64,000 nt of DNA from Dehalococcoidia bacterium (GTDB taxonomy: Bacteria > Chloroflexota > Dehalococcoidia > Lucifugimonadales > Australimonadaceae). Position numbers and translations under genes: made by a program. How positions within the stretch are numbered: position 1 is the first letter of the stretch; every line of letters begins with the position of its first letter. The notes beneath the pieces were generated by a model. That model searched no databases. It saw only the letters and a list, made by a program, of their open reading frames with translations, and had not been told where the DNA came from. Where the stretch lies: contig OZ242210.1 of the NCBI GenBank assembly GCA_965206315.1, forward strand, positions 2,641,619 through 2,705,618, written 5' to 3'. Shown here one piece after another: positions 27,984-61,365 of the stretch.

Positions 27984-28020
27984 CCCTTGAACCTTCACGC
28001 TCCACCGCCGCAGCTCCTTC

Positions 28021-28262: not shown

Positions 28263-28279
28263 CTGTGCCCTACGCTGCC

Positions 28280-37663: not shown

Positions 37664-39905
37664 CCAGTCGCCTGCCCGGCCTCGTGGAGGGCACGCCAGA
37701 CGCGCTCGGGGGTGAGGGGGAGCGTGGAGATGCGGACGCCGGTGGCGTTGAAGACGGCGTTCGCCACGGCGGGGGCCACGCAGACGATGCCGCCCTCGCC
37801 GACGCCCTTCGCACCGTAGGGGCCGGGACCGTTGCCGCTCTCGATCAGCACGGTCTCGAACTCGTGCGGGAGGTCGGTGAAGACGGGCACGCGGTAGTCG
37901 ACGAGGTTCGGGTTCAGGAGCTGGCCGTCCTCGTAGAGCATCTCCTCGAAGAGCGTGTGGCCGATGGCCTGCATCGCGGCGCCCTCGTCCTGGCCCTCGA
38001 CCTGCTTCGGATTGATCGCCTTGCCGGGGTCGGAGATGGAGTAGTAGCGGAGCAGGCGCACCTCGCCGGTGGCCGTGTCGACCTCGACCTCCGCCGCGCC
38101 GATGCTCACCTCCCAGAAGACGGGGTCCTGGCGGAGTTTGCCGCTGGCGTGCTTCGGGGTGACGTAACCCCGGCCCATGAGCTCGCCGCCGGAGCCGCCG
38201 AACATGTTGCGCACGAGCGCGGCGAACGCGACGGACTCGCCCTTGAACGACGCCCGTCCGTCCTCGGCTTCAATCTCCTCCGGGAACGCCTCGAAGTGCT
38301 CCGCGGCGAGGTCGAGCACCTGCTGGCGGACGTCGATGGCGGCGTCGTGCACGGCGAGGCCCATGAGCGTCGTCGAGCGGCTGGAGCCGGTCGAGCGGTC
38401 CCACGGCACCGCGGAGGTATCCGACGCGACGACGCGCACCTTCTCGTAGGGTATGCGCAACTCCTCCGCTGCGATCTGCGCCATCACCGAGCGGGAGCCC
38501 TGCCCCATCTCCGCGCTGCCGATGTAGACGGTGGCGCTGCCGTCGGAGTGGAAGCGCACGAGCGACGTCGACGTGGGGCTCGCGCCGGAGTTCGTGACGC
38601 CGCAGGCGAAGCCGATGCCACGTTTCACGCCGGGCGGCGTCGGCCCCGGAGTCCACGAGTCCCAGCCGAAGTCGTCTGCGACCCTGCGCAGCGCGTACTC
38701 GAGGTCGCCCTCGATGGGACGCCTGCCGCGCCGCACCTCCTCGCCTTCCTTGACGAGGTTCTTCACGCGGAACTCGAACGGGTCCATGCCCAGCGCGTGG
38801 GCGATCACGTCTATCTGGGACTCGCACACCCAGATGGCCTGCGGCCCGCCGATGGAGCGGTAGGAGCCCGCGGGGGTCGAGTTCGTGAAGAGGCCGTAGG
38901 TCTTCACCCGGACGTTCGCCAGCGCGTACGGCCCCGGCATGCGGTCGCCGAAGCGCTCGGTCACCCGAACGCCGTTGTCAGTGTAGCCGCCGGTGTCGAC
39001 GTAGCCGGTGCACTCGCGGGCGACGATGGTGCCGTCGTTCATCACGCCGGTGCGGATCGTCCCGCGGGCGGCGTGGCGGCGGACCGTCCGCATGGCCTCG
39101 TCGACGCTCAGCGCAAGCCCGACCGGCCTGCCCGCCTCGCGGCTGAGCGCGGTCACGAGCGGCTCTATCTTTGTGTACGATTTGCTCCCGTAGCCCCCGC
39201 CAACGAAGGGGACGACGACCTGCACCTGGTCCAGTTGCCGCCCGAAGAGGCGCGCTATCTCCGCCTGTACGAGGAACGGGTGCTGCGCCGACGTCCAGAG
39301 GCGGATGCGGTCCGGTTCGTAGCTGGCGATGCAGGTGTGCGGTTCCATTGCGTAGTGGTAGACCATCGGGAACTCGAACGTATCCTCGAAGACGCGGTCG
39401 CACTCGCGGAATGCCGCATCCACGTCGCCCCATTCGTAGCCGTACTCGTGGCAGAAGTTGGACTCGTGGACGGGCTCACTGGACGGGTCGAGCGCTTCGT
39501 CGATGCCGGTGACCGTCGGCAACTCTTCGTACTCGACGTCAACCAGTTCGACGGCTGCCTCGGCAGTCGCGAGGTCGACAGCGGCGACAGCGGCAACGGG
39601 CTCGCCCTGGAAGCGCACCTTGTCGATGGCGATGACGGGGCGGTCCTTCTTGTCGGAGCCGTAGTGCGTCTCCATGTTGACGAGCTCAGCCGAGGTGAGC
39701 ACGGCGTAGACGCCGGGGAAAGCGCGCGCCCTGCTCGCGTCGATGCTGATGATGCGCGCGTGCGGCAAGGGGCTCGTCACGAGTCTGCAGAACGCCATGC
39801 CGGAGACTTCGAGGTCGCCGGTGAACTGCGCGCGGCCCGACAGCTTGTCATCCGCGTCGACCCGTCGCACCGCCGTACCGACCGTTTTGAACTCGCGCGT
39901 CGTCA
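37660..39905 (-). CDS. xanthine dehydrogenase family molybdopterin-binding large subunit
   Basis: The start is placed at ATG 39905 (MTTREFKTVGTAVRRVDADDKLSGRAQFTGD), overlapping the small-subunit stop. It has the GSYRSIGGPQ motif and the C-terminal GAKGVGEGG. The track ORF is over-extended to 40251. Confidence 0.9.
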
Positions 39906-40388
39906 TCGGCCTGCCTCCGCCGCTTCGTGGACAGCTTCCACGATCTTCTTGTAGCCGGTGCAGCGACAGACGTTGCCGCGCATGTAGTCCTTGATCACCT
40001 CCTCGGAAGGAGCGGGGTCGGCATCGAGCAGCGACTTCGCGGCGAGCAGCATGCCCGGCGTGCAGAAGCCGCACTGGAACGCGGCGTTGTTGACGAACGC
40101 CTCGATGAGCGGGGACGCGCTCTCGTCCGCCGCGAAGCCTTCGACGGTGAGCACCACCCTGCCCCGCGCCTCGAACGCCGGAACGGTGCAGGAGCTGACG
40201 GGAGCGCCGTCCAGCAGCACGGTGCACGCGCCGCAGACCTGCACGTCGCACGAGCGTTTCGTGCCCGTGAGGCCGAACCGCTCGCGCAGCAGATCGATGA
40301 GCGGCGTCTGCGGCTCGACCGCGGCCTCGACCGGCGCACCGTTCAATTCGAATGCGACCGCCAGGGTGTCCTGCGGCTCAGGCATCAC
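39903..40388 (-). CDS. (2Fe-2S)-binding small subunit of the molybdenum hydroxylase
   Basis: CDVQVCGACTV and QCGFCTPGM...CRCTGY cysteine motifs. Confidence 0.9.
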   Translation of the reverse strand: MMPEPQDTLAVAFELNGAPVEAAVEPQTPLIDLLRERFGLTGTKRSCDVQVCGACTVLLDGAPVSSCTVPAFEARGRVVLTVEGFAADESASPLIEAFVNNAAFQCGFCTPGMLLAAKSLLDADPAPSEEVIKDYMRGNVCRCTGYKKIVEAVHEAAEAGR

Positions 40389-41256
40389 CGCCTCCGTTCC
40401 GCGCCAGCGCGCGCAGCACCGTCCGCTCCATGAAGACGCGCACGAGGTGCTCCTTGTAGTCGACGCCGCCGTGCATGTCCTCGACCGCGTCGGCGTCCTC
40501 CGCCGCCAGGCGGGACGATTCGCGGATAGCAGACGCGCCCTCGGTCAACGCATCGACGCGCTCTCCGCGCAGCACGTCCTCGGAGCGGGAGAGCCGCCGC
40601 GCGACGGGTGAGACGCAGCCGAGGGCGAGACGCGCATCCGCGACGACGCCGTCCTGCACCGCGAGCGCGGCGGCGATACCGAGCGTCGGGCGGTGGTGGT
40701 AGCCGAACTTCGAGTAGGCGGCGCGCATGCCTGCGGGGAACGCGGGGACGCGCACGGCGGTCAGGAGTTCGTCCGGCGCGAGCGAGGTCTCGTATGAGCC
40801 GGTCTGCAGGTCGCCGACGGCGATGCGCCGCGAGCCGGACGGCCCCGCTATGTCCAACTCGGCCTCGTAGACGAGGAGCAGCGTCGCGGGGTCTGAGTGG
40901 GGCTCGGCGAAGCAGAGGTTGCCCGCGAGCGTGCCGACGTTCCGCACGCGCAGGTTCGCCACGCTGTGCTCGACCTCCGACAACAGCGGCAGCCGGTCGC
41001 GCACGAGCGGGTCGTGCTCGACAGCGCTGTGTGTCGCGCTCGCGCCGATGACGATGCTGTTACCGTCGGCGGCGATGGCGTCGAGGCCGGGGATGCTCTT
41101 CACGTTGACGAGGGTGTCGTAGGCGAGCAGGCCGGACTTCATGGCGAGCAGCAGTTCGGTGCCGCCGGCGTAGAGCGCGGCGCCGCCGTCCGCGTCGGCG
41201 AGGGCAGACGCGGCCTCCCGGACGGTCGTGGGTTCATGCAAGCGGAACGGCTTCAC
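40378..41256 (-). CDS. FAD-binding (CoxM-like) medium subunit of the molybdenum hydroxylase
   Basis: GTG start. ALYAGGTELLLAMK and NVGTLAGNL motifs of the FAD-binding PCMH-type domain. Confidence 0.9.
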   Translation of the reverse strand: MKPFRLHEPTTVREAASALADADGGAALYAGGTELLLAMKSGLLAYDTLVNVKSIPGLDAIAADGNSIVIGASATHSAVEHDPLVRDRLPLLSEVEHSVANLRVRNVGTLAGNLCFAEPHSDPATLLLVYEAELDIAGPSGSRRIAVGDLQTGSYETSLAPDELLTAVRVPAFPAGMRAAYSKFGYHHRPTLGIAAALAVQDGVVADARLALGCVSPVARRLSRSEDVLRGERVDALTEGASAIRESSRLAAEDADAVEDMHGGVDYKEHLVRVFMERTVLRALARNGGGDA

Positions 41257-48533: not shown

Positions 48534-48733
48534 CCGCTATTCTCGCCTCTGGACGCCGCCGGTAGCAAGATGGGGGGAGGCCGCCGCGCGACCGTGTACG
48601 CTTGTGCGCACATGCGCGTCTGCGACGCGTTTCTGGATTCCCGCCTTCGCGAGAATGACGGGGGATGCGGTTGACGGGGCGCCCCACGCCTCCCTACCCT
48701 CACGCCCGCCAACCCATGCAACGGAGCGCGACC

Positions 48734-49546
48734 ATGACCACGTCCCCGACCGAACACACCGTGCAAGCCCACGGGCTCGATCTGCACTACCTTGACTGGG
48801 GGAACCCCGACGCGCCGCCCGTGCTGCTGCTGCACGGCCTGCAGGACTCCGCCGCGCTCTGGGGGACGTTCGCAGAGTCGATGCGCAGCGACTTCCACGT
48901 AGTGGCGCTCGACCATCGCGGTCACGGCGACAGCCCGCGCGCGGAGACGTACGCGCTCGCCGACTACATCGCGGAGACGCGGGACGTGGTACGCAACCTG
49001 GGACTCGACGCGCCCGTGCTCATCGGGCACTCGGCGGGCAGCAAGAACGCGTGGATGTGCATCGCGGACAACCCCGGCCTCGCCTCGAAACTGGTCATCA
49101 CCGATATGGACCCGGACTCGTACAACCCGGGCTCCGTCGCGATGATCTCGCGCTACAAGGACGAGACGGACTTCTACGAGAACCGCGCGGCGGTCGTGGA
49201 GCGGCTGCGCTCGCGGCAGCCCAACGCGTCGGACGAGGAGCTGGAGCGGGACGTGGACGCGCTCGCGGTGCAGATCGAGGGAAGGCGCTACACGTGGAAG
49301 CGCAGCCGCGACGTGGTGACGAAGTACGACAGGCCGGACGTGTGGGAGCGTCTGCCGGAGGTCGGCGCGCCGACGCTTATCGTGCGCGGGGCGGACAGCA
49401 CGCTGCTGCGTCACGACGTCGCCGTGCGGATGGAGGCCGCGATACCGGACTGCCGCCTCGTCGAGCTGCCGGGCGGCGGTCACTGGGTGCACCTGGAGCA
49501 GCCGGACGCCTACGCGGCGACCGTGCGGTCGTTCCTGCTGGGGTGA
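48734..49546 (+). CDS. alpha/beta hydrolase
   Basis: ATG 48734, 6 nt after GGAG. It has an HG oxyanion motif (LLLHGLQD), the nucleophile elbow GHSAGS and a C-terminal GGGHW. Confidence 0.85.
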   Translation: MTTSPTEHTVQAHGLDLHYLDWGNPDAPPVLLLHGLQDSAALWGTFAESMRSDFHVVALDHRGHGDSPRAETYALADYIAETRDVVRNLGLDAPVLIGHSAGSKNAWMCIADNPGLASKLVITDMDPDSYNPGSVAMISRYKDETDFYENRAAVVERLRSRQPNASDEELERDVDALAVQIEGRRYTWKRSRDVVTKYDRPDVWERLPEVGAPTLIVRGADSTLLRHDVAVRMEAAIPDCRLVELPGGGHWVHLEQPDAYAATVRSFLLG

Positions 49547-49583
49547 GGGAGTGGTGCCCAGTGATAAGATATGCCGCAGAGGC

Positions 49584-49973
49584 ATGGAAATGCAGCCGGA
49601 CTATCTCGACATACTGACGCTCGAATCGGGCAAGGAGTGGGAAGACATCCACATCCGCGGGCTTGACGTGTCCGTGCGCGACATCCTCACCTTCATGGCC
49701 TCCGGCATGTCCGAGGACCAGATTCTTGCCAAAGTCCCCGAGTTGAAGCGTGAGGACATTCGCGCCTGCCTCGCGTTTGCCGCCGACCGTGAGCGCCGCG
49801 CCACGTCGCTGCCGTCGCACCTGTACTACGACAAGAAGACGAAGCGCATCAAGGCGAAGCCACCCCAGGAGGAGCTGCTCGACCGCATCCGCCAGCGCGT
49901 GAACGCGTCAGGCAGAGGCGTCTCCACAGAGACCATCCTGGCAGCGCTCGACAAGGAATATGATCGTCGTTGA
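49584..49973 (+). CDS. DUF433-containing antitoxin candidate with a C-terminal extension
   Basis: IHIRGLDVSVRDILTFMASGMSEDQILAKVPELKREDIRACLAFAA is a DUF433 core. The tail overlaps the PIN start by 14 nt. Confidence 0.7.
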   Translation: MEMQPDYLDILTLESGKEWEDIHIRGLDVSVRDILTFMASGMSEDQILAKVPELKREDIRACLAFAADRERRATSLPSHLYYDKKTKRIKAKPPQEELLDRIRQRVNASGRGVSTETILAALDKEYDRR

Positions 49974-50358
49974 CGCCTCGGCACTGATCTCGGTTGTAAC
50001 GGGCCAACAACCCGGTGGTGATTGGGTACGCGAGCAACTTCGAGAGCAGCGGCTGTTCAGCCCCCACGTGATGCCCGCTGAAGTCCATAGCGCTCTCAGA
50101 AGCATGGAACTCAGGGGGGAACTCTCGCCAGAAGACGCCACCAGAGCAAGGGATGAGTTCTTCGGGTTCGACTTTGAACTCTATCCTTTCCGCCCATACG
50201 CAGACCGGGTCTGGGCGCTGCGATGGAACCTGAGTTGCTACGACGCGTGGTACGTGGCACTGGCGGAGACGCTCGACTGTCCGCTCGTGACGATCGACCA
50301 CCGACTCAGCCGAGCGGTCGGGCCGGAGTGCGCGTTCGTGACGCCGCCGGACGCGTGA
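49960..50358 (+). CDS. vapC: PIN-domain toxin (VapC-like)
   Basis: MIVVDASALISV..., CYDAWYVALAETLDCPLVTIDHRL. Confidence 0.85.
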   Translation: MIVVDASALISVVTGQQPGGDWVREQLREQRLFSPHVMPAEVHSALRSMELRGELSPEDATRARDEFFGFDFELYPFRPYADRVWALRWNLSCYDAWYVALAETLDCPLVTIDHRLSRAVGPECAFVTPPDA

Positions 50359-50389
50359 CGGGGCACTCCACACCCGCCAGCCCCGCAAG

Positions 50390-50475
50390 GGCCCTCACCC
50401 GCGCATCAAAGATGCGCACCCTCTCCCTCAGGAGAGGGGATTGGCTGCGAGGTTCCTGCCTCCGCAGGAACGACG
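50390..50475. repeat. intergenic repeats (B inverted, A')
   Basis: The repeats are gccctcacccgcgcatcaaagatgcgcaccctctccctcaggagagggg and gcgaggttcctgcctccgcaggaacgacg. Confidence 0.9.
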
Positions 50476-50545
50476 CCCGCCGACTCCCCATGCGGGCGTG
50501 CGGTCTGATAGGCTCTCTCGCAATCTCAGTCCGGCGGAACGTTCC

Positions 50546-51541
50546 ATGGAATTCGGCCTGTACCTGCGCTCCTTCCTCACCGATCGCACGCGCCCGCTCT
50601 ACGAGCAGATAGACGAGCTCGTCGAGATCTGCCACGTGGCTCGCGACAGCGGCTTCTCAGCCGTCACGATGCCGCAGCACTGGGTGTCGCACCCCACGAT
50701 CTGGCCGCAGCCGTTCCAGGTGCTGGCGCGCCTCGCGCCGGAGACCGGCGACATGCGGCTGCTCACCGGCATCGTGCTGCTACCGCTGCACAACCCCGTG
50801 CAGGTGGCGGAGGACGTGGCGACGCTCGACCACATCTGCCGGGGACGGCTCACGTTCGGGGTCGGCATCGGCTACCGCGAGACGGAGCTGGGCGCCGTGG
50901 GCGCCACGCGGCGGGACCGCGTGCCGCGCCTCACCGAGTCGATCGAGATCATGAAGCTGCTGTGGAGCGGGGACGAGGTGAACTACGAGGGACGCTACTG
51001 GACGGTGAGCGAGGCGAAGATGGGCTTCGTGCCCGTGCAGCAGCCGCACCCGCCGATATGGATAGCGTGCCAGAGCGACGGCGCGGTACGGCGCTCTGCC
51101 CGCATCGCGGACGCATGCTACATCGCGCCGCAGGTCGGGCTCTCGGACCTGGGGTCCGTCACGGCTGCCTATCGCGAGGAGCGTGCCGCATCCGGCAACG
51201 GGCCGGGACGGCTCACGCTGACGCGCGGCGTCGCATACGGGAAGGACAAGGCGACCGCGGCAGCCGAGGCGCAGGAGGCCGCAGCGTCGTCGTACAGGAT
51301 GTACAGCACGTGGAACATGCAGGAAGACACGATGCTGAAGATCAACATCGACTCCGACTCGAAGGTCGAGGACTGGGCGATCACCGGCAACGGCGACGAC
51401 TGCCTGGAGCAGTTCGCGGCCATCGCGGAGCACGGCATCGACTACGTGGGCATGACGTTCTACAACCTGCCGAAGACGCTGGAAGCGCGCAAGGAGTACC
51501 TGCAGAGCTTCGCGGAGAACGTGATCCGGCGCTCGCCGTAG
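50546..51541 (+). CDS. LLM-class flavin/F420-dependent oxidoreductase
   Basis: MEFGLYLRSF...FSAVTMPQHW...LTFGVGIGYRETE. The start is placed at ATG 50546; the track ORF starts inside a repeat. Confidence 0.85.
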   Translation: MEFGLYLRSFLTDRTRPLYEQIDELVEICHVARDSGFSAVTMPQHWVSHPTIWPQPFQVLARLAPETGDMRLLTGIVLLPLHNPVQVAEDVATLDHICRGRLTFGVGIGYRETELGAVGATRRDRVPRLTESIEIMKLLWSGDEVNYEGRYWTVSEAKMGFVPVQQPHPPIWIACQSDGAVRRSARIADACYIAPQVGLSDLGSVTAAYREERAASGNGPGRLTLTRGVAYGKDKATAAAEAQEAAASSYRMYSTWNMQEDTMLKINIDSDSKVEDWAITGNGDDCLEQFAAIAEHGIDYVGMTFYNLPKTLEARKEYLQSFAENVIRRSP

Positions 51542-51543
51542 CC

Positions 51544-52407
51544 ATGCGCCCGTTCGAGTACATACGGCCTGCGAGCGTCGCGGAGGCGGTCAACGTCCTC
51601 TCCGAGCGCGGCGAGGACGCGTTCGTGCTCGGAGGCGGCAGCGCGGCGGTCGTCATGCTGCGGCTGGGAGTCGTGCGCCCGGATGTGGTGGTCGACCTCG
51701 GCGGTATCGAGGAGATGCGCGGGCTGCGGCGTAACGGCGGCCTGCACATCGGCGCGCTCGCCAGCATCCGCAGCCTCGAACTGGACGACGGCGTCCGCGC
51801 GGCGTACCCGCTGCTCGCGGAGGCCGCGTCGCAGGTGGCAAACGTGCGCGTGCGGAACGTCGCCACGGTCGGCGGGGCGGTCGCCTACGGCGAGCCGCAG
51901 ACCGACACACCGACGGCGCTCACGGCGTCCGGGGCGGTCGTGCACATCGCGGGCGTCTCCGGCGAGCGCAGCGTACCGATCGACGAGTTCTATGCCGGGC
52001 CGTACGAGACTGTCCTCGAGCAGGGCGAGATCGTGTCGGGGATAGACGTGCCGGAGCCGCCGCCGCACACGGGCGGCGCGCATATCAAGTTCACGGTGGG
52101 GTCGCCAGAGAACAAGCCGGTAGCGAACGCGTCCGCGCTGGTTACGGTCGAGCCGTCGTCCGGAGCGTGCGTGTCGGCGCGCGTCGTGATGGGCGCCGCG
52201 GGGCCTGTGCCGGTCGTCGCGAATGCGGCAGGCGCGCTGGTGGGCGTCGAGGCGTCGCCGGAGCGCATCAAGGAGATCGCCGCAGCGGCGGCGGAAGAGG
52301 CAGACCCGATGGAAGACCTGCGCGGGCCCGAGTGGTACAAGCGCCGGATACTCAGGATAGTGGTGGAGCGAGCGTTGACATGTGCGCTGCAACGGGCCCG
52401 AACGTAA
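51544..52407 (+). CDS. FAD-binding (CoxM-like) medium subunit of a second molybdenum hydroxylase
   Basis: MRPFEYIRPASVAEAV...LGGGSAAVVMLR...NVATVGGAVAYG. It begins 3 nt after the LLM stop. Confidence 0.9.
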   Translation: MRPFEYIRPASVAEAVNVLSERGEDAFVLGGGSAAVVMLRLGVVRPDVVVDLGGIEEMRGLRRNGGLHIGALASIRSLELDDGVRAAYPLLAEAASQVANVRVRNVATVGGAVAYGEPQTDTPTALTASGAVVHIAGVSGERSVPIDEFYAGPYETVLEQGEIVSGIDVPEPPPHTGGAHIKFTVGSPENKPVANASALVTVEPSSGACVSARVVMGAAGPVPVVANAAGALVGVEASPERIKEIAAAAAEEADPMEDLRGPEWYKRRILRIVVERALTCALQRART

Positions 52408-54689
52408 CCCGCCTCGTCGGGCAGTCGATGCCGTCGCTCGAAGCGCCCGACAAGGCGGCGGGGCGCATCGAGTACATGGCCGACCTGACCGTGCCGAACA
52501 TGGCGCACGCGAAGGTCGTGCGCAGCCCCCTGCCCCACGCGCGCATCGTCTCGGTCGACGCATCGGAGGCGCGGGCGATGCCGGGCGTCGTCTGCGTGCT
52601 GACGCGCGACGAGGTGCGGGCCGACCCGGACATGGAGGAGGTGTACGGCTTCGTCTACCGCGACGCTCCGCTCGTTGCGATGGACAAGGTGCGCCACCAG
52701 GGCGATATCGTCGCGGTGGTGGTCGCCGACGACGCCGACACCGCCGAGGCCGCCGCCGAGTTCGTGGACGTGGAGTACGAGGAGCTGCCCGCGGTGATGA
52801 ACGTGCCGCAGGCGCTGGCGGAGGGCGCCGTGCAGGTGCACGAGGAGTTCTTCCCCATCGCGCCGGAGCTGCGCCCCATCGAGGGCACGAACGTCTGCCA
52901 CCACGCGACGATCGGCTGCGGCGACGTGGAGCAGGGCTTCGCGGAGTCCGACTTCGTCTACGAGGACGAGTTCCTCGCGCCGCCGGTGCAGCACTGCGCG
53001 CTGGACCTGCACGCCGTCATCTCGCAGATAGAGGACGGGCAGATCACGGTGTGGACGAACTGCCAGTCGCCCTTCCCGCTCGGGCGGGAACTGGAGCGCA
53101 TCTTCAAGATGCCCGCGCGCGTCATCATCCCGTACGTGGGCGGCGGGTTCGGGAGCAAGAGCCGCGACCGCATCGAGTGCGTCATCACCGCCGCCGCGAA
53201 GCTGGCAGGGCGTCCGGTGCGCTACGTGATGACCCAGGAAGAGACGTTCATGACGTTCATCCGCCCGGCATACCGGAACCGGATGCGGACGGGCGTGAAG
53301 AAGGACGGCACCATCGTCGCGCGGCACAACGAGTTCTGGGTGGACGTGGGCGGCTACGCCATCAGCGGCGCGCGGAGCGCCAACAACACGCTCAAGGTGG
53401 CGACGGGCCCGTACCGCATCCCGAACGCCCGCGTGGACTGCTACGCCGTCTACACGAACAAGCCGCCTTCCTCGCCGTACCGCGGGCTGCCGACGACGCA
53501 GCATACGATGTCGTACGAGGCGCAGTTCGACCGCATCGCGCGCGACCTCGGCATCGACCGGCTGGAGATACGCCGCAGGAACCTGGTGCGCGACGGCGAC
53601 ATCCACATCACCGGCGACTACCTGCGCTCCGCGCACTCGCACGAGTGCCTGGAGCAGGCGACCGAGGCCATCGGCTGGGACGAGCCGCTGCCGGTCGACC
53701 CGGACGGGAAGAAGCTGCGCGGCAGAGGCGTCTCCTGCACCATCAAGTACACACTCACCCCGGCGCGATTGATGTCCGAGAACAGCGCGGAGGTCGCGCT
53801 CGTCGAGGACGGCGTGTTCGAGGTGCGCATCGGCACGGTGAACATCGGCCAGGGATCGGACACGGTGATGGCGCAGATCGCGGGCGACGCGCTCGGCGTC
53901 GGGCTGGACGCGATTCGCATCGTGCACAGCGACACGTACCGCGTGCCGGTGGACAGCTCGACTACGGCGAGCCGCTCCACGTACCACATGGGCCGCGCGG
54001 TGGTCGAGGCGACGGACAACCTGAAGCCGCAGATGCTCGAAGCAGCCTCGCAACTCCTGGAGCGTGAGGCGGCCAGCCTCGTATTCACACCGGCTGGCAT
54101 CGCCCAGCCGGACGGCGGCGCGGGCGTCACGTACGGCGAACTCGTGGAGCGCGTCGGCGCGCCGCTCGCCGCGACCGGCGACTGCGTGGTCGGCGGCATG
54201 TACGCGGGGCCGGACGGCAAGTCGTACCCCATCGCCTCGACGTTCTGGACGTTCGCGTCGTGCGCCGCCGAGGTGGAGGTCGACACGGAGACGGGCACGG
54301 TGCGCGTCGTGAAGGCGGCGGCATCGGCGACGACCGGCACGGCGGTCAATCCGCACTCCATCGAGACGCAACTGGAGGGCGGCATCGGGCAGGAGATCGG
54401 CCCCACGCTCTTCGAGCAACTGGTCTGGGACGACGGCGGTCAGCTCATCAACGCGGCCCTGCTCGACTACCCGCTGCCAACGATGGAGACGATGCCGGAC
54501 TACGCGCCACGCTACGTCGACCACCCGTTCGAGGGCGGACCGTTCGGCGCGAAGGGCATGGGCGAGATCGGCTCGGTGGTCGTGCCGGGCGCGGTGGTCA
54601 ACGCGGTCTACGACGCGACGGGCGTGCTCTTCCACGAGATACCGTTGGCGCCGCACAAGATCGTGGAAGGGTTGGAGGGGCAACGATGA
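52380..54689 (+). CDS. xanthine dehydrogenase family molybdopterin-binding large subunit
   Basis: LVGQSMPSLEAPDKAAGRIEYMADL, SPYRGLPTTQ and the C-terminal GAKGMGEIG. The start is uncertain (ATG 52380 or nearby) and overlaps the FAD-subunit end. Confidence 0.9.
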   Translation: MCAATGPNVTRLVGQSMPSLEAPDKAAGRIEYMADLTVPNMAHAKVVRSPLPHARIVSVDASEARAMPGVVCVLTRDEVRADPDMEEVYGFVYRDAPLVAMDKVRHQGDIVAVVVADDADTAEAAAEFVDVEYEELPAVMNVPQALAEGAVQVHEEFFPIAPELRPIEGTNVCHHATIGCGDVEQGFAESDFVYEDEFLAPPVQHCALDLHAVISQIEDGQITVWTNCQSPFPLGRELERIFKMPARVIIPYVGGGFGSKSRDRIECVITAAAKLAGRPVRYVMTQEETFMTFIRPAYRNRMRTGVKKDGTIVARHNEFWVDVGGYAISGARSANNTLKVATGPYRIPNARVDCYAVYTNKPPSSPYRGLPTTQHTMSYEAQFDRIARDLGIDRLEIRRRNLVRDGDIHITGDYLRSAHSHECLEQATEAIGWDEPLPVDPDGKKLRGRGVSCTIKYTLTPARLMSENSAEVALVEDGVFEVRIGTVNIGQGSDTVMAQIAGDALGVGLDAIRIVHSDTYRVPVDSSTTASRSTYHMGRAVVEATDNLKPQMLEAASQLLEREAASLVFTPAGIAQPDGGAGVTYGELVERVGAPLAATGDCVVGGMYAGPDGKSYPIASTFWTFASCAAEVEVDTETGTVRVVKAAASATTGTAVNPHSIETQLEGGIGQEIGPTLFEQLVWDDGGQLINAALLDYPLPTMETMPDYAPRYVDHPFEGGPFGAKGMGEIGSVVVPGAVVNAVYDATGVLFHEIPLAPHKIVEGLEGQR

Positions 54690-55156
54690 ACGTGAACCTC
54701 ACCGTGAACGGCGAGACGCTCTCGCTCGACGTGCCGCCGTCCACGACGCTGCTCGACCTGCTGCGCGACCGGCTCGGCCTGCACGGCACGAAGGAGTACT
54801 GCCACAGCGGCGTCTGCGGCGCGTGCACCGTGCTCGCGGACGGCAAGGCGGTCAGTTCGTGCAGCATGCTCGCCGGACAGGTGGACGGCGCGGACGTGCT
54901 CACCATCGAGGGGCTGACACCCGACGAGGGGCTGCACCCGATCCAGCAGGCGTTCGTGGACAACTTCGGGCTCCAGTGCGGCTACTGCACCCCAGGCATG
55001 ATCCTGCTCGCGAAGGCGCTGCTCGACGAGAACCCGGCCCCGACGCGCGAGGAGATCATCCGCTACATGGGCGGCAACATCTGCCGTTGCACCGGCTACG
55101 CGGGCATCCTGCGGTCGGTCGAAGCCGCAGTCAAGGAGCGCGGCTCGTGGAGCTGA
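54686..55156 (+). CDS. (2Fe-2S)-binding small subunit
   Basis: ATGA overlap with the large subunit. CHSGVCGACTV and QCGYCTPGM...CRCTGY motifs. Confidence 0.9.
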   Translation: MNVNLTVNGETLSLDVPPSTTLLDLLRDRLGLHGTKEYCHSGVCGACTVLADGKAVSSCSMLAGQVDGADVLTIEGLTPDEGLHPIQQAFVDNFGLQCGYCTPGMILLAKALLDENPAPTREEIIRYMGGNICRCTGYAGILRSVEAAVKERGSWS

Positions 55157-55593
55157 CCGACCGCTTCGACGTCGGCGCATCGCCCGCCGAGGCGTGGGCG
55201 TTCTTCTGGGACCTGCCCCGCGTCGCGAAGTGCCTGCCGGGCTGCGAGAGCATCGAGGACGCGGGCGGCGGGGCGTACCACGCGCGGATGACGCAGCGCG
55301 TGGGGCCGTTCAAGGTGACGCTGGACATGGAGATGCGCATCGACGAGGCGGAGGAGGGGCAGCGGGTGGTCGTGAGCGGCAACGGGAAGGACCGCATGGG
55401 AAACCGGCTCCACGTCAACCGGCTCGCGCTCGAGCTGAGTGAGCCGTCGCCGGGCCGGACCGAGGTGAACTATGCGATGGACTTCAACCTGTACGGGCGT
55501 CTCGCGACGCTCGGCAACACGGCGGTGAAGCGCAAATCCGAAGAGATCCGCGCTGAGTTCAGCCGCCGTATCGCGGAGGAGCTGGGAGGCTGA
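55147..55593 (+). CDS. CoxG-like SRPBCC family protein
   Basis: The GTG start overlaps the small-subunit end. FDVGASPAEAWAFFWDLPRVAKCLPGCESIE is typical of carbon monoxide dehydrogenase subunit G-like proteins. Confidence 0.8.
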   Translation: MELTDRFDVGASPAEAWAFFWDLPRVAKCLPGCESIEDAGGGAYHARMTQRVGPFKVTLDMEMRIDEAEEGQRVVVSGNGKDRMGNRLHVNRLALELSEPSPGRTEVNYAMDFNLYGRLATLGNTAVKRKSEEIRAEFSRRIAEELGG

Positions 55594-55603
55594 GGGGGAC
55601 GGC

Positions 55604-56725
55604 ATGAGCCAGGCTGAACTAGACCGCCGCATCCACCAGGTGCTCTCCGAGTTCGAACTGGTGGGGCCGTTCTTCGCAGGCTACCCGGTCAACCAGGACT
55701 TCGACTACTCCGCGCTCTATCCCCTGCTGCGCTTCGCCGCGAACAACGTAGGCGACCCGTTCGGCTACTCGCGCTACCAGGCGAACACGCACGAGACGGA
55801 GCGCGAGGTGGTGCGAACGGTCGCGGAGCTGATGCGGCTGCCGCCGGATGAGGCCTGGGGGTACGTCACCGCAGGCGGGACCGAGGGCAACATGTACGGC
55901 ATCTACGTGGGGCGAGAGATGCTGCGCAGCCCGATCGCCTATTTCTCGCAGGACACGCACTACTCGGTGCTCAAGATCCTGCACATCCTGAACATACGCA
56001 ACATCATGATCCGCAGCCAGGAGAACGGCGAGATCGACTACGACGACCTACGCGAGTCGATCCGCATCAACCGCGACGCGCCGGCGCTGATCGTGGCGAA
56101 CATCGGCACCACGATGAAGGGCGCCGTGGACGACCTCGAACGCATCGGGGGCATCGTCGAGGAACTGGCGCTGACGCGCTACTACATCCACGCCGACGCA
56201 GCGCTGAGCGGGATGATCCTGCCGTTCGTGGACGACCCCCAGCCGTTCGGCTTCGACAACGGGATACACAGCATCGCGGTATCCGGTCACAAGATGATCG
56301 GTTCGCCGTTGCCGTGCGGCGTCGTCATAACGAGGCGGGAGTACACCGCGCAGATCGGCCGCGCCATCGAATACGTGGGCGCCCTGGACACCACGCTGCT
56401 CGGTTCGCGCAACGCGGTCACTCCGATGATCATCTGGTATTCGCTGACCAAGCACGGGCGGGAGGGATTCCGGCAGATCGTGGCGGAGATGCTCGACACG
56501 GCCGAATATGCGGTGCAGCAGTTCAACGCGAACGGCATACCCGCCTGGCGTACGAGGAACAGCCCCATCGTCGTCATCCCCCGCCCCTCTCCGCAGGTGC
56601 TCTTCCAGTGGCAACTCGCGCCCTTGGGCGACATCGCTCACCTGATCACCATGCCCCACGTCACCCGCGAGATGATCGACAAGGTCATCGCCGATTGCCT
56701 GACACAGCAGCCAACCGACACATGA
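55604..56725 (+). CDS. hdc: PLP-dependent group II decarboxylase, histidine-decarboxylase type
   Basis: 373-aa ORF. TAGGTEGNMYG, and the lysine motif AVSGHKMIGSPLPCGVV closely resembles bacterial PLP-type histidine decarboxylases. Confidence 0.8.
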   Translation: MSQAELDRRIHQVLSEFELVGPFFAGYPVNQDFDYSALYPLLRFAANNVGDPFGYSRYQANTHETEREVVRTVAELMRLPPDEAWGYVTAGGTEGNMYGIYVGREMLRSPIAYFSQDTHYSVLKILHILNIRNIMIRSQENGEIDYDDLRESIRINRDAPALIVANIGTTMKGAVDDLERIGGIVEELALTRYYIHADAALSGMILPFVDDPQPFGFDNGIHSIAVSGHKMIGSPLPCGVVITRREYTAQIGRAIEYVGALDTTLLGSRNAVTPMIIWYSLTKHGREGFRQIVAEMLDTAEYAVQQFNANGIPAWRTRNSPIVVIPRPSPQVLFQWQLAPLGDIAHLITMPHVTREMIDKVIADCLTQQPTDT

Positions 56726-57147
56726 GCCAGCAGCCCACAGACCAACCGGCGCCCAGCCGCCGCATCATCGTCATCGTGCCCGACAGGCCGGGGCAACTGG
56801 CGCGCGTCACCGTGGCGCTCGCCGAAGAGGAGATCAACATCGAGGCGATCGACGGGCGGCGCGCGGGCGAACTGGGCGTCATCACGCTGACCACCAGCGA
56901 CGACGACGCGGCGCTGCTTGCCCTGCTGAAGGCCAACCTGCGCGCGGTCACGTCGGACGCGGTCGTTTTTCACCTGCCCGACCGGCCCGGCGCACTCGCC
57001 GGCGTCGCGCAACTCTTCGAGCAGCACGATCTGAACGTGCGCACCATCCACATCATGCACCGCCTGGCAGGACAGGCCATCGTCGCAGTCACAACCAGCG
57101 ACGACGACCTGGCGCGAACGCTACTCGACAGCGAGTCGCTGCTGTAG
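56722..57147 (+). CDS. tandem ACT-domain protein
   Basis: ATGA overlap with the decarboxylase. Two units match the ACT pattern (IIVIVPDRPGQLARVTVALAEEEINIEAI and VVFHLPDRPGALAGVAQLFEQHDLNVRTI). Confidence 0.75.
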   Translation: MSQQPTDQPAPSRRIIVIVPDRPGQLARVTVALAEEEINIEAIDGRRAGELGVITLTTSDDDAALLALLKANLRAVTSDAVVFHLPDRPGALAGVAQLFEQHDLNVRTIHIMHRLAGQAIVAVTTSDDDLARTLLDSESLL

Positions 57148-57268
57148 CCCGGCGCAGGCCGATGCTATGCGCTCTGTTAATTTCATCAAACCGTAATCGA
57201 TAAAGGCATATATGTAACGGTTTCGTCACAGCAAATACCTGTAGGATGGTCTGTGGGCCGGTACAGCC

Positions 57269-58927
57269 ATGCAGCCCACAGCACCCGATATGGAAACGCA
57301 TCCCCTCTCCACTCCCGCTCATCTCGCCGTATCCCTGCTGGCGCTCGCGGCCCTGTCTCTGGCGGCCTGTGCCCCTGCAGAGGCAGACTTGGAGGCCACT
57401 GTCGAGGCCCAAACCCGCGAACGGGTGCAGGCGACCATCGATGCGATGCCTACGTCGACTCCGACTCCTGCACCTACGGCGACTCCGACCCCAACGGCTA
57501 CCCCGACACCGACGCCTGCGGCTACCGCGACTCCGGCGCCCACCGCCACTCCGACCCCCACGGCTACTCCGGCCCCCACATCCACACCCACGCCGCGCCC
57601 GACCCCAACGCGCGCGCCGCCATACGCCCCTCGTCCGAACCAGGCCGTAAGCGACCCCTGGGAAGAGGCGCAGCAGGGGCTGCGGGAGCTCAAGCGTCCG
57701 GACCGGGATCCTGCCGCAGCCGCCGCCATCGAGTCCCTGGGCTGGGTTGCCGACGGGATACGTGAATCGCGACGCGAACAGTCCGCCGTCGTCGACCTCC
57801 TGTCCCTCGCCAGGCATGGGTCGGGCGACTTTCTGCAGGCGCTGACCACAACGCCGTGGCTCCAGGACGATCTGACGCTCAACGAGCTGTTTGTGCTGAG
57901 GCAGCTGATCAGCGTTGCATACGACAATGGACCGGCGGCAGTGCGGCTCCTGGGGATGCCGTTCCTGGAACGGATAGAACGCCTGGACTCCGTAGCCCTC
58001 TCGCCGTTCTACGAGTTGCAGCAGGACAACGTACTGGACACCGCGCTGGAGCACCCTGCACTGCGTGACGGCATCACGGAAGCCCAGAGGGGCATCGTCG
58101 CCGCGCTGAAGCCCTGGGTCGTACGGGACCCCGCAATGATGACGAGGCTATTCGACACCGAGCGGACCGTCGTGGCGGAGAAGGTGGTCTCGTTCCCCCT
58201 GAGCGGCGAGGTAGCCCTGTCGGTCACCTGGCCCGCCGAGGGAGCATCCGCGGAGAAGGCTTCCCGCACGCTGGCTCTGTTGGAGGACATCGTCTCCACG
58301 TTCGAGGGGTTCATGGACGCGCCCTACCCGCACGAGCACGTTACAGCGCTGGTCGTCGGCCGCACGTGGGGGCTCTTCTTCGGCAGCGGAGGGGAGCACT
58401 TCATCCTGATCCCCGAATACCACGACCATCCCGGGTTCCTGGCCCGCACGATCGCGGGCGAGTACTGGGCCGGTTACGCGCCGCCCTGGGTGGGCGGCGG
58501 AGCCCGGAGCTTCATGGCCGGGATGTACCCCGCGCTTCGCGGCGATGCGGCGGTCCCGTCGCCGCGGTTGTGCGAGCATGCCGCCAACATCCGCGAGATG
58601 CTGCACCACCCTGACCATCGGTCCTGGGACTACCTCTGCGGGCCCCTCCTGGGAGAGGGCGTGTTCATCGACCTCTACCTGGCGATGGGAGACGAGGCGT
58701 TCAGGAAGGCGTTCAAGCAATTGCAGGTGTGGTGGAACGACCAGGCGCTCTATGTCCGGTGCTTCAGCGCCCCGGACAGCGGCCTGTGCTACGTCGATAC
58801 GGCATTCCTGGACGGCCTCACGCCGGGACTCACGGAGGAGGACGTCCGCCTCGCCCGACCGGTCATCAACCGGCACTACTACGGGAGCGAAACACGTCCC
58901 ACGCCTACGCCCGCACCTTCCGGATGA
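57269..58927 (+). CDS. lipoprotein with a Thr/Pro linker; degenerate (HExxH-less) paralogue of the next gene
   Basis: Lipobox LSLAACAP with a TP linker. It shares repeat modules (LGWVADGI, MPFLE, HPALRDGIT). The site aligned to HEAAH reads AGEYW. Confidence 0.75.
   Translation: MQPTAPDMETHPLSTPAHLAVSLLALAALSLAACAPAEADLEATVEAQTRERVQATIDAMPTSTPTPAPTATPTPTATPTPTPAATATPAPTATPTPTATPAPTSTPTPRPTPTRAPPYAPRPNQAVSDPWEEAQQGLRELKRPDRDPAAAAAIESLGWVADGIRESRREQSAVVDLLSLARHGSGDFLQALTTTPWLQDDLTLNELFVLRQLISVAYDNGPAAVRLLGMPFLERIERLDSVALSPFYELQQDNVLDTALEHPALRDGITEAQRGIVAALKPWVVRDPAMMTRLFDTERTVVAEKVVSFPLSGEVALSVTWPAEGASAEKASRTLALLEDIVSTFEGFMDAPYPHEHVTALVVGRTWGLFFGSGGEHFILIPEYHDHPGFLARTIAGEYWAGYAPPWVGGGARSFMAGMYPALRGDAAVPSPRLCEHAANIREMLHHPDHRSWDYLCGPLLGEGVFIDLYLAMGDEAFRKAFKQLQVWWNDQALYVRCFSAPDSGLCYVDTAFLDGLTPGLTEEDVRLARPVINRHYYGSETRPTPTPAPSG
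57449..57617. repeat. low-complexity coding repeat (Thr/Pro linker)
   Basis: Short-period acgccgac/ccgactcc-type repeats encode [54 protein letters not shown]. Confidence 0.85.
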
Positions 58928-61365
58928 GGAACCCTATGCGTCTCATGGCATCGCTCACCGTTCTGCTGCTCCTGGCGTGCTCGCCCGAGCCGCCCGACCT
59001 GGAGCCAACGGTGGAGGCCGTCGTCAGGGCGACCATCGACGCCGCGTACCCGGCCACGCCAACGAGTACCCCGGCGCCGGCCGCCACGTCGACGCCCACC
59101 GCCACACCGACGCCCAGCGCCACGCCGACGCCAACGGACACTCCGACTCCAGCGGCCACGCCCACGCCCACAAGCGGACCGACGCCAACTGCCACACCGG
59201 CATCCACGTCCACGCCGACTCCGGCGCCCTCGCCAACGCCCAGACCGGACCCCACCTGCATACCCAACCTCGGACAACTGTCGCCCGAGCAGGCGCAGCG
59301 GATCGCGGGCCTGACGTGGCCGCGCTTCTCGGTCGAGGCATTGGAGCGCCTTGCGGTGCGTTCTCCGGCGGCGTTCCAGGTCTGGCTGGAGCGTTTCGGA
59401 GACGACCCCCCGCACGTAGCCGTGACCGAGGCCTTCACACTCCTGGCGGTGTGCGACGAGGCGGCCGCCGTGCAGATCGCCGGGATGCCATTCCTGGACG
59501 ACGCCGGCCTGGGCCACGAGTTCGCGTTCAACGATCAGATGATCCTGGAGGCGCTGGTAGGACTGGCACGGGCCGACCTTGACAGTCTTACCAGGGTGCT
59601 CTCTCACCCCGAACTGCAGGGCGGGATCACCGATGCGTCAACCGCTCCCGTCCTGTTGCTAGCCCTCGGACAGGAAGACCCGGCAGCGGCAGCGGCGATA
59701 CGGGCACTGCCGTGGGTCGCGGACGGCATCACGAACCCGAAAGACGCGGTGACGTATGGCATGAGAGATGTCAACTACTACCAGGAGTGGCCGTATAAGG
59801 CCATGGAAGACGAGACCAGGCACGTGGTCAGGCTGGTGTGGATGGTGGAGCGCGCCCCCGGATCGTTCCGGGCATTCATGGACATACCGTGGGTACGGGA
59901 CGGGTATGGATGGACCGAGTACTACATTATCGAAGGACTCAGCCGCCTGGCATACCGGGACGACGAGTCGACAGCGCGCATCCTTCGGATGCCGTTCCTG
60001 GAAACTCCCGGAGGGGACGACGGAGAGATCCTCTCGCTGCTGTCGAATAGCGAGCATGAAGGCGCTCTTGCCGGAGTCCTGTCCAGTCCCCGGCTCGAGG
60101 GGGGCATCAAGGACGATCACCTGGCCGAGGTGACGTTGGCATATGTCGAGACTCAGGACCGGGATGCAGCCGCTGCCCTGGACGGCCTCGCCTGGGTCCG
60201 GGACGGTGTCCATCCATCGGAACAGGAGGCGGTTCTGGCGCTCGCGGGTGCTGCAGTGGAATCCCCGCCGCTCCTCCGCGCCCTGCTCGCCGCGGACTGG
60301 GTATGGGACGGCCTCACGCAAGCCGAATCACGGGCTGTCAGATCCCTCACGCTCATGGCGAGGCCGCGCCTGAGCGAGCCGATGGAGTCGACGGCGTTGC
60401 GCGTCCTCGACATGCCGTTCCTCAGGGGGGAGATAACGTCACTGGATGCGTTGGCCGTAACCGCCCTCTATCTGCTCGGCCACGCGGTCGTGGAAGGCAC
60501 CCTGCAGAAAGTGCTGTCACACCCGGAACTGCGCAGCGGCATCACCGACGAGTGGACGGACCGTGTGGCGGTCCTGTATCTGACGAACATCGACCACACG
60601 CTGCCCGACACCGTGCTGGATCCTGAGCAGACCTCAGCCGAGAAGCGGGTGGTCACGCTCCCACACACGGGCGAGGTGACGTTGCACGTGATCGAGCCCA
60701 GGGGGCCTGGAGCGTCATCCGGCGGGCCGATGGACCTGCTGGAGCACGCGGTGCGTACGCACGAGGAGTTCATGGGCCTGCCGTTCCCTGAGCGTGACCC
60801 CATCCTGTTCATCACCGGTATCACCCGCGCCCGCGGAGCGCATTTCGGCAACGGTCTCTTCACATCCGCTTCAAGGAACAGCGCATCCACTATCGCCCAC
60901 GAGGCGGCGCATACCTGGCGCCTCGCGCCCGGTTGGTTGAACAGGCCGGTCAGATGGATGGTGGAAGGAGGAGCACAGTTCCTGACCTATATCTCAGAGA
61001 AAGCCCGCACCGGTGCGCCGCTGCCCGAAGCGGCGAGCTCATGCAGCCTCGCCAACAACATCTCCGAGCTGGTCGAACTCGAACTGGACCCGGACGTGAT
61101 CTATCAATCGGCCTGCAACTACAGGCTGGGGGAGGGGCTGTTCCTAGAGCTCTACGATAGGCTGGGGGATACCGCATTCCGGCAAGGGTTCCGCAATCTG
61201 CACCTGGTCGGCACGGGACAGGAGGGGGTAGAGGACGCTCAGGACGAGTGCACCGGAGACGATGCAGCGGTGTGCTACTTCAAGGCGGTCTTCCTCTCAG
61301 GAATGGCCCCAGAGCAGTCGGCCGTCGCCGAGGAGATCATCGACCGCAGGTATTACGGCCGCTAG
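58924..61365 (+). CDS. lipoprotein with a Thr/Pro linker, repeated helical modules and an HExxH (gluzincin-like) motif
   Basis: The ATG overlaps the previous stop (ATGA). Lipobox LLLLACSP. It has repeated LPWVADGI / MPFL / HPEL.GGITD modules, then TIAHEAAHTW...WMVEGGAQF. Confidence 0.75.
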   Translation: MRNPMRLMASLTVLLLLACSPEPPDLEPTVEAVVRATIDAAYPATPTSTPAPAATSTPTATPTPSATPTPTDTPTPAATPTPTSGPTPTATPASTSTPTPAPSPTPRPDPTCIPNLGQLSPEQAQRIAGLTWPRFSVEALERLAVRSPAAFQVWLERFGDDPPHVAVTEAFTLLAVCDEAAAVQIAGMPFLDDAGLGHEFAFNDQMILEALVGLARADLDSLTRVLSHPELQGGITDASTAPVLLLALGQEDPAAAAAIRALPWVADGITNPKDAVTYGMRDVNYYQEWPYKAMEDETRHVVRLVWMVERAPGSFRAFMDIPWVRDGYGWTEYYIIEGLSRLAYRDDESTARILRMPFLETPGGDDGEILSLLSNSEHEGALAGVLSSPRLEGGIKDDHLAEVTLAYVETQDRDAAAALDGLAWVRDGVHPSEQEAVLALAGAAVESPPLLRALLAADWVWDGLTQAESRAVRSLTLMARPRLSEPMESTALRVLDMPFLRGEITSLDALAVTALYLLGHAVVEGTLQKVLSHPELRSGITDEWTDRVAVLYLTNIDHTLPDTVLDPEQTSAEKRVVTLPHTGEVTLHVIEPRGPGASSGGPMDLLEHAVRTHEEFMGLPFPERDPILFITGITRARGAHFGNGLFTSASRNSASTIAHEAAHTWRLAPGWLNRPVRWMVEGGAQFLTYISEKARTGAPLPEAASSCSLANNISELVELELDPDVIYQSACNYRLGEGLFLELYDRLGDTAFRQGFRNLHLVGTGQEGVEDAQDECTGDDAAVCYFKAVFLSGMAPEQSAVAEEIIDRRYYGR
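59050..59251. repeat. low-complexity coding repeat (Thr/Pro linker)
   Basis: It encodes [69 protein letters not shown]. Confidence 0.85.

Follow-up and report, generated by a model that had tools for sequence, protein, structure and literature searches.

A seven-gene unit in a Dehalococcoidia genome as a probable composite of an oxidation block and a mobile decarboxylase-ACT gene pair

The present analysis concerns seven consecutive forward-strand genes of a Dehalococcoidia bacterium (contig OZ242210.1 of assembly GCA_965206315.1), lying at positions 50546-57147 of a stretch of 64,000 nucleotides that was studied as a whole and is here called the window (G+C ~65-70%). In order, they specify a luciferase-like monooxygenase-type (LLM) oxidoreductase, the three subunits CoxM, CoxL and CoxS of a molybdenum hydroxylase, a CoxG protein, a group II pyridoxal phosphate (PLP) decarboxylase (DC, 55604-56725; PF00282, Pyridoxal_deC), and a stand-alone protein of 141 aa carrying two Pfam ACT domains (ACT, 56722-57147). 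It is probable that two independent modules make up this unit: an oxidation block of five genes, which is the older, and a mobile cassette formed by the DC and ACT genes.

Enzymes of the xanthine-oxidase family hydroxylate N-heterocycles, and the three-subunit hydroxylases of this family are the closest described counterparts of the five-gene block. They have in common the set of large, medium and small subunits (L, M and S) with Mo-pterin, FAD and two [2Fe-2S] sites, plus CoxG. The window block is distinguished by its gene order (M-L-S-G), by a translationally coupled LLM gene placed in front, and by an M subunit of ordinary length (287 aa).

For DC, two groups of described enzymes are relevant. 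With the Gram-negative PLP-dependent histidine decarboxylases (HDCs; 7ERV/7ERU, V. anguillarum AngH, K. aerogenes Hdc) it shares the fold family, 45-49% identity and a length of ~375 aa, but differs in having Val, Cys or Thr for a Glu, an altered GSRNGH motif, a separate clade, and a tandem-ACT partner or fusion. The plant serine decarboxylase (SerDC) family (8JG7, 8JIK, the legume SDC-like aldehyde synthases and the tomato SDC-like aromatic decarboxylase) is 41-43% identical, and DC shares YP-x-N, NN-x-GDPF and many other positions with SerDC rather than with HDC. Members of the plant family use Ser, Ala, Phe, Met, Leu, Trp or Tyr, not His, and a C-terminal zinc finger is distinctive of the plant serine decarboxylase enzymes. 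Compared with this family, the window DC is without the N-terminal extension, has Val rather than Tyr, Phe or Thr, keeps the loop Tyr and has an ACT partner.

Tandem ACT pairs of ~140 aa are known as regulatory modules, such as the aspartate kinase beta subunit (2DTJ, 3AB2, 2ZHO), the acetolactate synthase small subunit, and the ACT pair of SerB2. Like these modules, the window ACT is encoded beside, and overlapping, a catalytic gene, and fused versions occur in other lineages; it differs from them in that its partner is a group II PLP decarboxylase, and the TM-scores are only ~0.4. No paper joining 'histidine decarboxylase' and 'ACT domain' was found in the literature, and the titles and abstracts of the papers retrieved on ACT domains and PLP decarboxylases point to no such pairing.

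Two independent modules and the point at which they meet

Comparative evidence was drawn from 80 species-level loci (L001 and so on) fetched around homologs of DC at 62-97% identity, against which the seven window proteins were searched, and whose neighbour genes were predicted and then clustered (1.5 Mb of sampled DNA). The closest homologs of DC were in metagenome-assembled genomes of Dehalococcoidia and Chloroflexota. Their isolate names (SB066x, APA, IRC, COS, RHO, Plut and "Poriferisocius") presumably point to sponge and coral hosts, an association read from these names.

The DC and ACT genes form a nearly constant pair in varied surroundings. In 74 of 81 sequences (the 80 loci and the window) the gene immediately after DC was ACT, a truncated or degenerate ACT copy was seen in two to three more, and two loci stop at a contig end. 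The sole loci with DC but without ACT were L060 and L061 (DC 72-73% identity), where a gene of ~340 aa with a lipoprotein-like N-terminus stands downstream of DC in the place of ACT. The stop codon of DC overlapped the start of ACT in 62/79 loci. Outside the pair, the neighbours belonged to 47 distinct gene clusters upstream and 49 downstream, including SDRs (short-chain dehydrogenases), M16 peptidase, Gfo/Idh/MocA, tyrosine recombinase, CtaG, permease and EamA proteins, and in 38 of 79 loci the gene upstream ran in the opposite direction. A constant functional partner, such as a transporter or oxidase, was sought across the 80 loci and none was found. When the window was compared with the loci by blastn, similarity to more than 40 of them started at 55604 ± 5 and ended at 57147 ± 5, which are the limits of the two reading frames, and some 70 other genomes carry DC-ACT without the Mo-enzyme block. 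Two more distant relatives of DC, P0131 and Paraburkholderia P0285, have no adjoining ACT, the latter having an amino-acid permease at that position. The contig of P0131 (L081) is short, and its DC relative (47% identity, YPC motif) sits among small ORFs with one faint NUMOD3 match, which may represent a phage or mobile-element context.

The block also occurs without the pair. The five-gene block is stable, its CoxL orthologs being 67-97% identical. In the ortholog series the identity of CoxL runs from 94 down to 57% and then falls to ~44% for paralogs, and orthologs at 67-83% belong to the same LLM-M-L-S-G block without DC-ACT in five loci (L084, L085, L091, L092, L093). In L084, L085 and L092 a UbiD-family gene comes next after the block and an alpha/beta-hydrolase gene stands before it (the gap between coxG and ubiD being 10 nt in L084), and in L091 and L093 two class II aldolase genes flank the block. 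The hydrolase (cluster 9) lies directly before the LLM gene in L003, L007, L012, L016, L085 and L092, and LLM itself was always ahead of CoxM in the orthologous blocks examined. Cupin, amidohydrolase_2, Rieske, isochorismatase and UbiX-like genes are found near the block in some loci.

The seven-gene block described by the original prediction is conserved among relatives, its exact order recurring in six other species-level genomes (L002, L004, L005, L010, L011, L016), and two of these (L011, L016) show what lies beyond it, with coxG-DC-ACT followed by ubiD and two class II aldolase genes. In L012, the sequence after ACT and before the ubiD start (GGAGGGCGAC-ATGCCAGTGCAGGACCTGCG) is almost identical to that directly after coxG in L084. 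Most simply, these arrangements can be read as the insertion of DC-ACT into an older operon, between its coxG and ubiD genes. The two modules also appear to lie on one 3,168,340-bp chromosome (L022 for DC-ACT, L084 for the Mo block), ~0.55 Mb apart. Just past the ACT stop of L008, L011, L012 and L016, between ACT and ubiD, there is a short conserved element, GCGCATCG(G/A)(G/A)TACAATC(G/C)C, that resembles the sequence upstream of a tRNA-Arg gene of L013 (CCGTATAATCGCGGGACAAG) and may be a -10-like promoter piece carried with the cassette.

Within the window's own clade, repeated breaks have occurred at the coxG/DC junction, and each of them falls at the 10-nt spacer (55594-55603) that joins the two modules and that was delimited by DNA similarity. 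Relatives that are 90-95% identical (L001, L003, L007, L008, L012) diverge exactly there. The interrupting DNA is a 669-aa gene in L001, a minus-strand 120-aa gene in L003, L007 and L058, a minus-strand UbiD gene in L012, five genes in L059, and eight in L008. The 669-aa insert of L001 is homologous to two large genes downstream of ACT in the window, indicating that this gene and DC-ACT have swapped order between close relatives. These two plus-strand ORFs of the window (57269-61365; listed with 552 and 878 aa, called by the gene finder with 344 and 674 aa) have no Pfam match, and the first starts with a lipoprotein-like signal sequence.

Taken as a composite, the unit would have arisen from an ancestral module A, consisting of the alpha/beta-hydrolase, then LLM-CoxM-CoxL-CoxS-CoxG, then a UbiD-family decarboxylase and class II aldolases. 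Module B (DC-ACT) would have landed precisely between coxG and ubiD in this lineage, and its transcription now probably continues from the operon upstream.

DC-ACT is a self-contained, horizontally mobile two-gene cassette common to Chloroflexota and Acidimicrobiales. Four Acidimicrobiales genomes (Actinomycetota) carry DC at 82-85% identity, and their DCs form one group nested within the Chloroflexota sequences in a neighbour-joining tree without support values. In all four, a tRNA gene precedes the pair: tRNA-Met by 20-214 nt in L031 and L033, and tRNA-Ala by at most ~45 nt in L038 and by 2.4 kb in L035. Of the 45 tRNA/tmRNA genes in the sampled loci, 26 are no more than 1 kb away from the pair, in flanks that make up ~11% of the sampled DNA, and ten loci have such a gene at no more than 300 nt, including the tmRNA of L032. 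In L013, two tRNA-Arg(CCG) copies (9841-9914 and 11605-11679) enclose 1.7 kb in which DC and ACT are the only genes. Over the tRNA itself the copies do not differ, and they also agree at most of the ~20 nt upstream, a GTATAAT box among them; the arrangement suggests that tRNA genes served as integration sites or recombined with each other.

This duplicated tRNA-Arg is the only perfect direct repeat around the pair. The flanking tRNA-Leu pair of L015 was considered as a repeat and rejected, the two being different genes with 78% identity. Conserved flanking repeats or att-like sites were sought around the cassette without a common motif being found, and the pair is accompanied by neither an integrase gene nor a shared flanking repeat; a tyrosine recombinase gene lies downstream in one sub-lineage only.

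Residues and relatives of the decarboxylase

DC has kept the PLP-binding Lys230 (in SGHK) and the loop Tyr257, which are conserved in 74/74 and 72/74 members of its clade, respectively (residue counts refer to 74 clade sequences). DC should be a true decarboxylase because both the catalytic Lys and the loop Tyr are present, the latter arguing against an aldehyde synthase; the role of the loop Tyr in this family has been described (PMC11407765). The original prediction had read histidine specificity from the lysine motif, an argument that does not hold, as SGHK and the loop Tyr are common to all group II relatives, including the plant serine and alanine decarboxylases.

It is quite unlikely, in our estimation, that DC is a genuine histidine decarboxylase, supplying histamine as, for example, a host-directed signal or for pH homeostasis, with ACT sensing histidine. 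The annotation itself is uniform: the sources that name clade members or the closest relatives all say "histidine decarboxylase", and an HDC of symbiont origin has been put forward for the holobiont of another sponge (PMC10570526). DC scores 453 bits on the NCBIfam model NF002748 "histidine decarboxylase", well above the cutoff of 305, and its nearest solved structure is the HDC of P. phosphoreum (7ERV, 47% identity). However, the model pass is not diagnostic, because the crystallised parts of the plant serine decarboxylase AtSerDC and alanine decarboxylase CsAlaDC score alike (455 and 452 bits), the canonical Salinivibrio HDC reaching 605. AtSerDC (8JG7) and CsAlaDC are 43% and 41% identical to DC. 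HDC and SerDC are only 41% identical to each other, which makes the DC clade a third branch, and when placed phylogenetically this clade branched apart from the canonical HDC sequences, again by neighbour-joining without support values.

The clade also differs from validated HDCs in particular residues. In the plant enzymes, residue X of G-Y-P-[X] sets side-chain specificity, being Tyr111 for serine in AtSerDC and Phe106 for alanine in CsAlaDC, and swapping it transfers the activity (PMC11407765). A legume family member with Thr at this position acts on Phe, Met, Leu and Trp, and members without activity on histidine exist (PMC4177580). The position is Glu (GYPES) in all four canonical enzymes checked, from P. 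phosphoreum, pJM1 (AngH), A. baumannii and K. aerogenes (Hdc). The window DC has GYPVNQ, with X being Val29. Of the 74 clade sequences, 60 carry Val at this position, 11 Cys and 3 Thr, and none has Glu, Tyr or Phe. A second motif, GSRNGH, is found in HDC and SerDC, including all four canonical HDCs; it is GSRNAV in the window DC and is changed throughout the clade, to GSR[N/S]A[I/L/F/V] in 74/74.

Gene context adds little in favour of histidine. The hdc gene of K. aerogenes is flanked by an antiporter gene and a hisS-like gene, and angH of pJM1 is followed by an ABC-transporter gene. Neither a histidine/histamine antiporter nor a HisRS-like gene was present among the annotated neighbour clusters of the 80 loci, most clusters being unannotated, and no siderophore cluster context like that of pJM1 was seen among the annotated neighbours of DC-ACT. 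As far as the sequences allow a judgement, histidine is an unlikely substrate, and an amino acid whose side chain is neutral or hydrophobic seems more plausible. In the composite reading, DC would probably decarboxylate an amino acid other than histidine, likely one with such a side chain.

The oxidation block and the single-pathway alternative

All seven genes, and every junction between them listed in the original prediction, were borne out by reading the sequence from 50200 to 57400, and its domain calls agree with Pfam and NCBIfam for all seven proteins. The LLM gene (50546-51541; PF00296, 178 bits) ends in TAG at 51539-51541 and is separated by 2 nt from the ATG (51544) of CoxM (51544-52407; PF00941, FAD_binding_5, and PF03450, CO_deh_flav_C). 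The CoxM stop (TAA, 52405-52407) lies beyond the in-frame ATG of CoxL at 52380, an overlap of 28 nt; an alternative in-frame ATG at 52428 would leave a 20-nt gap and no overlap, and both forms were chosen by gene callers on orthologous contigs. CoxL (52380-54689; PF01315, PF02738 and PF20256, Ald_Xan_dh_C and MoCoBD_1/2) is joined to CoxS (54686-55156; PF01799 and PF00111, Fer2_2 and Fer2) by ATGA at 54686-54689, and CoxS, with its stop at 55154-55156, overlaps by 10 nt the GTG (55147) of the SRPBCC protein CoxG (55147-55593; PF06240, COXG, 72 bits), the last of the five. A 10-nt gap with GAGGGGGA then separates the CoxG stop (55591-55593) from the DC ATG (55604). DC and ACT meet in ATGA at 56722-56725, and ACT stops at 57145-57147, after which an A+T-richer intergenic region, visible on reading the sequence, ends the unit (57148-57268). 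A codon-usage gene finder, which was our own program trained on the window itself, returned the same seven genes with the same starts, and all seven are under purifying selection relative to their orthologs (dN/dS 0.04-0.33).

A promoter and terminator scan found no sigma-70-like promoter or terminator-like site between the genes, save one weak terminator-like match inside coxG. Since, with that exception, no such site divides the genes, co-transcription of all seven is likely from their anatomy. A scan of the whole window against Rfam gave no match. The tight, probably co-transcribed unit of the original prediction can therefore be kept.

The domain set of three-subunit xanthine-oxidase-family enzymes is complete (hammerhead, two MoCo-binding domains, FAD and CO_deh_flav_C, double [2Fe-2S]), with all domains far above the Pfam cutoffs, and CoxL falls below every NCBIfam equivalog cutoff. 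The nearest solved structures to CoxL are the alpha subunit of 4-hydroxybenzoyl-CoA reductase (1RM6, 337 bits) and quinoline 2-oxidoreductase (1T3Q, 274 bits), which together with 6-hydroxypseudooxynicotine dehydrogenase (7DQX) rank ahead of the CO dehydrogenases. Two specific identities were tried and rejected. For aerobic CO dehydrogenase (CoxMSL), CoxL reached 257 bits against a cutoff of 991 (TIGR02416) and 300 against 950 (NF040766); by eye, its active-site stretch reads PSSPYRGLPTT (PYRGLP), which differs from what we take to be the form I motif of CO dehydrogenase, VAYRCSFR. For 4-hydroxybenzoyl-CoA reductase (HcrABC), the scores against cutoffs were 477/995 for alpha, 109/405 for beta (with only residues 3-113 aligned) and 168/258 bits for gamma. 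The best NCBIfam match of LLM, TIGR03619 (F420_Rv2161c), is just below its cutoff (162.2 vs 166.9 bits).

The block is one among many paralogous xanthine-oxidase-family hydroxylase blocks in these Dehalococcoidia and, judged by family membership and neighbours, most likely acts in the oxidation of an aromatic or N-heteroaromatic acid. The conserved companions (hydrolase, LLM, CoxG, UbiD and class II aldolases) suggest catabolism of such acids. A second paralogous Mo-hydroxylase set is encoded on the minus strand of the window at 37660-41256, in the order CoxM-CoxS-CoxL and with 39% identity for CoxL, and a second set, divergently oriented, lies beside the block in L011, L016, L084, L085 and L092.

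The original prediction had joined all seven genes in one pathway of decarboxylation followed by oxidation, in which DC would make histamine or a related heterocyclic amine, LLM and the Mo-hydroxylase would oxidise the amine, and ACT would sense the amino acid. This proposal, which we now regard as very unlikely, gains something from the tight coupling, from the seven-gene order in six other species, and from the N-heterocycle chemistry of the xanthine-oxidase family. Against it stand the ~47 other upstream contexts of DC-ACT, the ~70 genomes that have the pair without the block, the Cox block that exists without DC-ACT and has UbiD next, the apparent separation of the modules by 0.55 Mb in one genome, and a junction that is repeatedly broken, even by genes on the opposite strand; the Glu of histidine-type enzymes is, moreover, absent from DC. 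The suggestion that ACT is an amino-acid sensor fits if ACT is the partner of DC, but not if it is taken as the partner of the whole operon.

Mo-hydroxylase paralogs near DC-ACT in three other contexts could also be taken as support for a single pathway. A real link to DC-ACT was considered for these genes and set aside, their proximity being probably due to chance: the paralogs are only 27-33% identical and their genes are ordered differently. The Mo-enzyme genes of L031 and L033 are separated from DC by two tRNA genes and one for an EamA transporter, and in L075 the Mo genes are on the opposite strand. Such paralogs occur at ~1 per 180 kb in the sampled DNA, with a much higher density locally, and CoxL paralogs are dense (two in the window, three in 21 kb of L032), so that chance proximity to DC-ACT is to be expected.

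Several points weigh against the composite reading of the unit, or parts of it, which we nevertheless hold to be the best explanation. The 10-nt spacing of DC to coxG is kept in seven species, and the synonymous divergence (dS) of DC and ACT is similar to that of the Cox genes; together, these suggest that co-expression has long been stable in part of the lineage and might have gained a function. The non-orthologous Mo-hydroxylase genes less than 5 kb from DC-ACT (L031/L033, L032, L075) are in slight excess over a rough chance estimate. Histidine decarboxylase still supplies both the closest solved structure to DC and its best family model, and the role of the Glu in histidine recognition is deduced by homology with the plant enzymes. 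The binding of ACT to DC, or to a ligand, is putative. The gene calls and clusters of the loci come from a simple home-made gene finder, and the DC tree is a neighbour-joining tree lacking support values.

The region upstream of the unit, outside the coordinates of the original prediction, has some features of its own. The alpha/beta-hydrolase gene of the window (48665-49546, plus strand; Pfam Abhydrolase_1/6; gene finder start 48716) is followed on the same strand by a toxin-antitoxin-like pair (DUF433 and PIN by Pfam, 49551-50358), which lies between the hydrolase and LLM. At this spot there is no toxin-antitoxin-like pair in L003, L012 and L085, RHH+PIN in L084, and PhdYeFM+PIN in L091, making it a second recurrent insertion point in the same operon. 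The plus-strand intergenic leader of 187 nt (50359-50545) is highly structured by RNA folding, at -90.1 kcal/mol (z = -3.8 vs shuffles), with several GC-rich hairpins. Further upstream, in 25627-28279 (2.6 kb), no gene was called by the codon-usage finder; this region has moderate ORFs on both strands, and neither tandem repeats nor an Rfam match were found in it.

The ACT partner and the meaning of the gene pair

The AF2 model of ACT (pLDDT 87) has two beta-alpha-beta-beta-alpha-beta units. Its structural neighbours by Foldseek include the stand-alone tandem-ACT proteins 2F06 and 9VP8, and aspartate-kinase beta subunits (E ~1e-6, TM ~0.4). The family is narrow, with 261 homologs at E <= 1e-5 in a word-indexed search. 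An all-against-all search of representatives revealed two natural DC-ACT fusions, P0122 (532 aa, metagenomic) and P0121 (557 aa, Waterburya cyanobacteria, 17 cluster members). Their DC domains are 51-52% identical to the window DC, their C-terminal tandem ACTs match the window ACT at 35% (E = 1e-22, P0122) and 31% (E = 6e-9, P0121), and ACT is listed on both in precomputed Pfam annotation. No Mo enzyme is encoded near either fusion gene. In L095 (3409-7208), the P0122 gene is followed by ornithine cyclodeaminase/mu-crystallin and proline-racemase-family genes, with a GntR gene upstream on the opposite strand, a context that hints at cyclic amino-acid metabolism (proline/hydroxyproline type) in that organism.

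The existence of these two fusions weighs decisively for a functional link between ACT and DC, and ACT is most likely an allosteric sensor subunit regulating DC. The tandem ACT would bind an amino acid and gate DC allosterically as a separate regulatory subunit, in a manner likened to that of the aspartate-kinase beta subunit or the acetolactate-synthase small subunit. It is highly doubtful that ACT is instead an independent small-molecule-binding protein or regulator merely travelling with DC, as might be argued from a DC interaction that is only putative, from the known stand-alone tandem-ACT proteins and from the loci L060 and L061, which keep DC without ACT, since the two fusions are independent, the adjacency, with overlapping stop and start, is near-universal over many contexts and two phyla, and DNA similarity between the loci stops precisely with the ACT stop codon.

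The DC/ACT junction of the window (56700-56760) contains an imperfect direct repeat with its copies 23 nt apart (CAGCAGCCAACCGAC / CAGCAGCCCACAGAC), by which the end of DC (...QQPTDT*) and the start of ACT (MSQQPTDQP) are alike, in different frames. A duplication by slippage, or a remnant of gene fission or fusion, could explain the repeat, which looks specific to the window's close relatives.

The name "histidine decarboxylase" is probably a misannotation for the DC clade. The serine/alanine decarboxylase control leaves it unjustified, and calls for caution with claims of histamine production by sponge and coral symbionts that rest on this annotation. DC-ACT provides a clean example of a two-gene unit moving between phyla in host-associated communities. 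By landing beside tRNA genes or inside operons, it produces operons that resemble pathways but are not, and tight gene spacing alone is weak evidence of a shared pathway. If true, the obligate pairing or fusion with a tandem ACT would be a new mode of regulation of PLP decarboxylases. A bolder idea, which we think unlikely, is that DC is the first group II PLP amino-acid decarboxylase under a dedicated ACT sensor subunit, and that the cassette serves host association in symbionts of sponges and corals (Chloroflexota, Acidimicrobiales), which exchange it horizontally; it would make a bioactive amine, for example a trace amine from a hydrophobic or aromatic amino acid, at times when this amino acid is plentiful.

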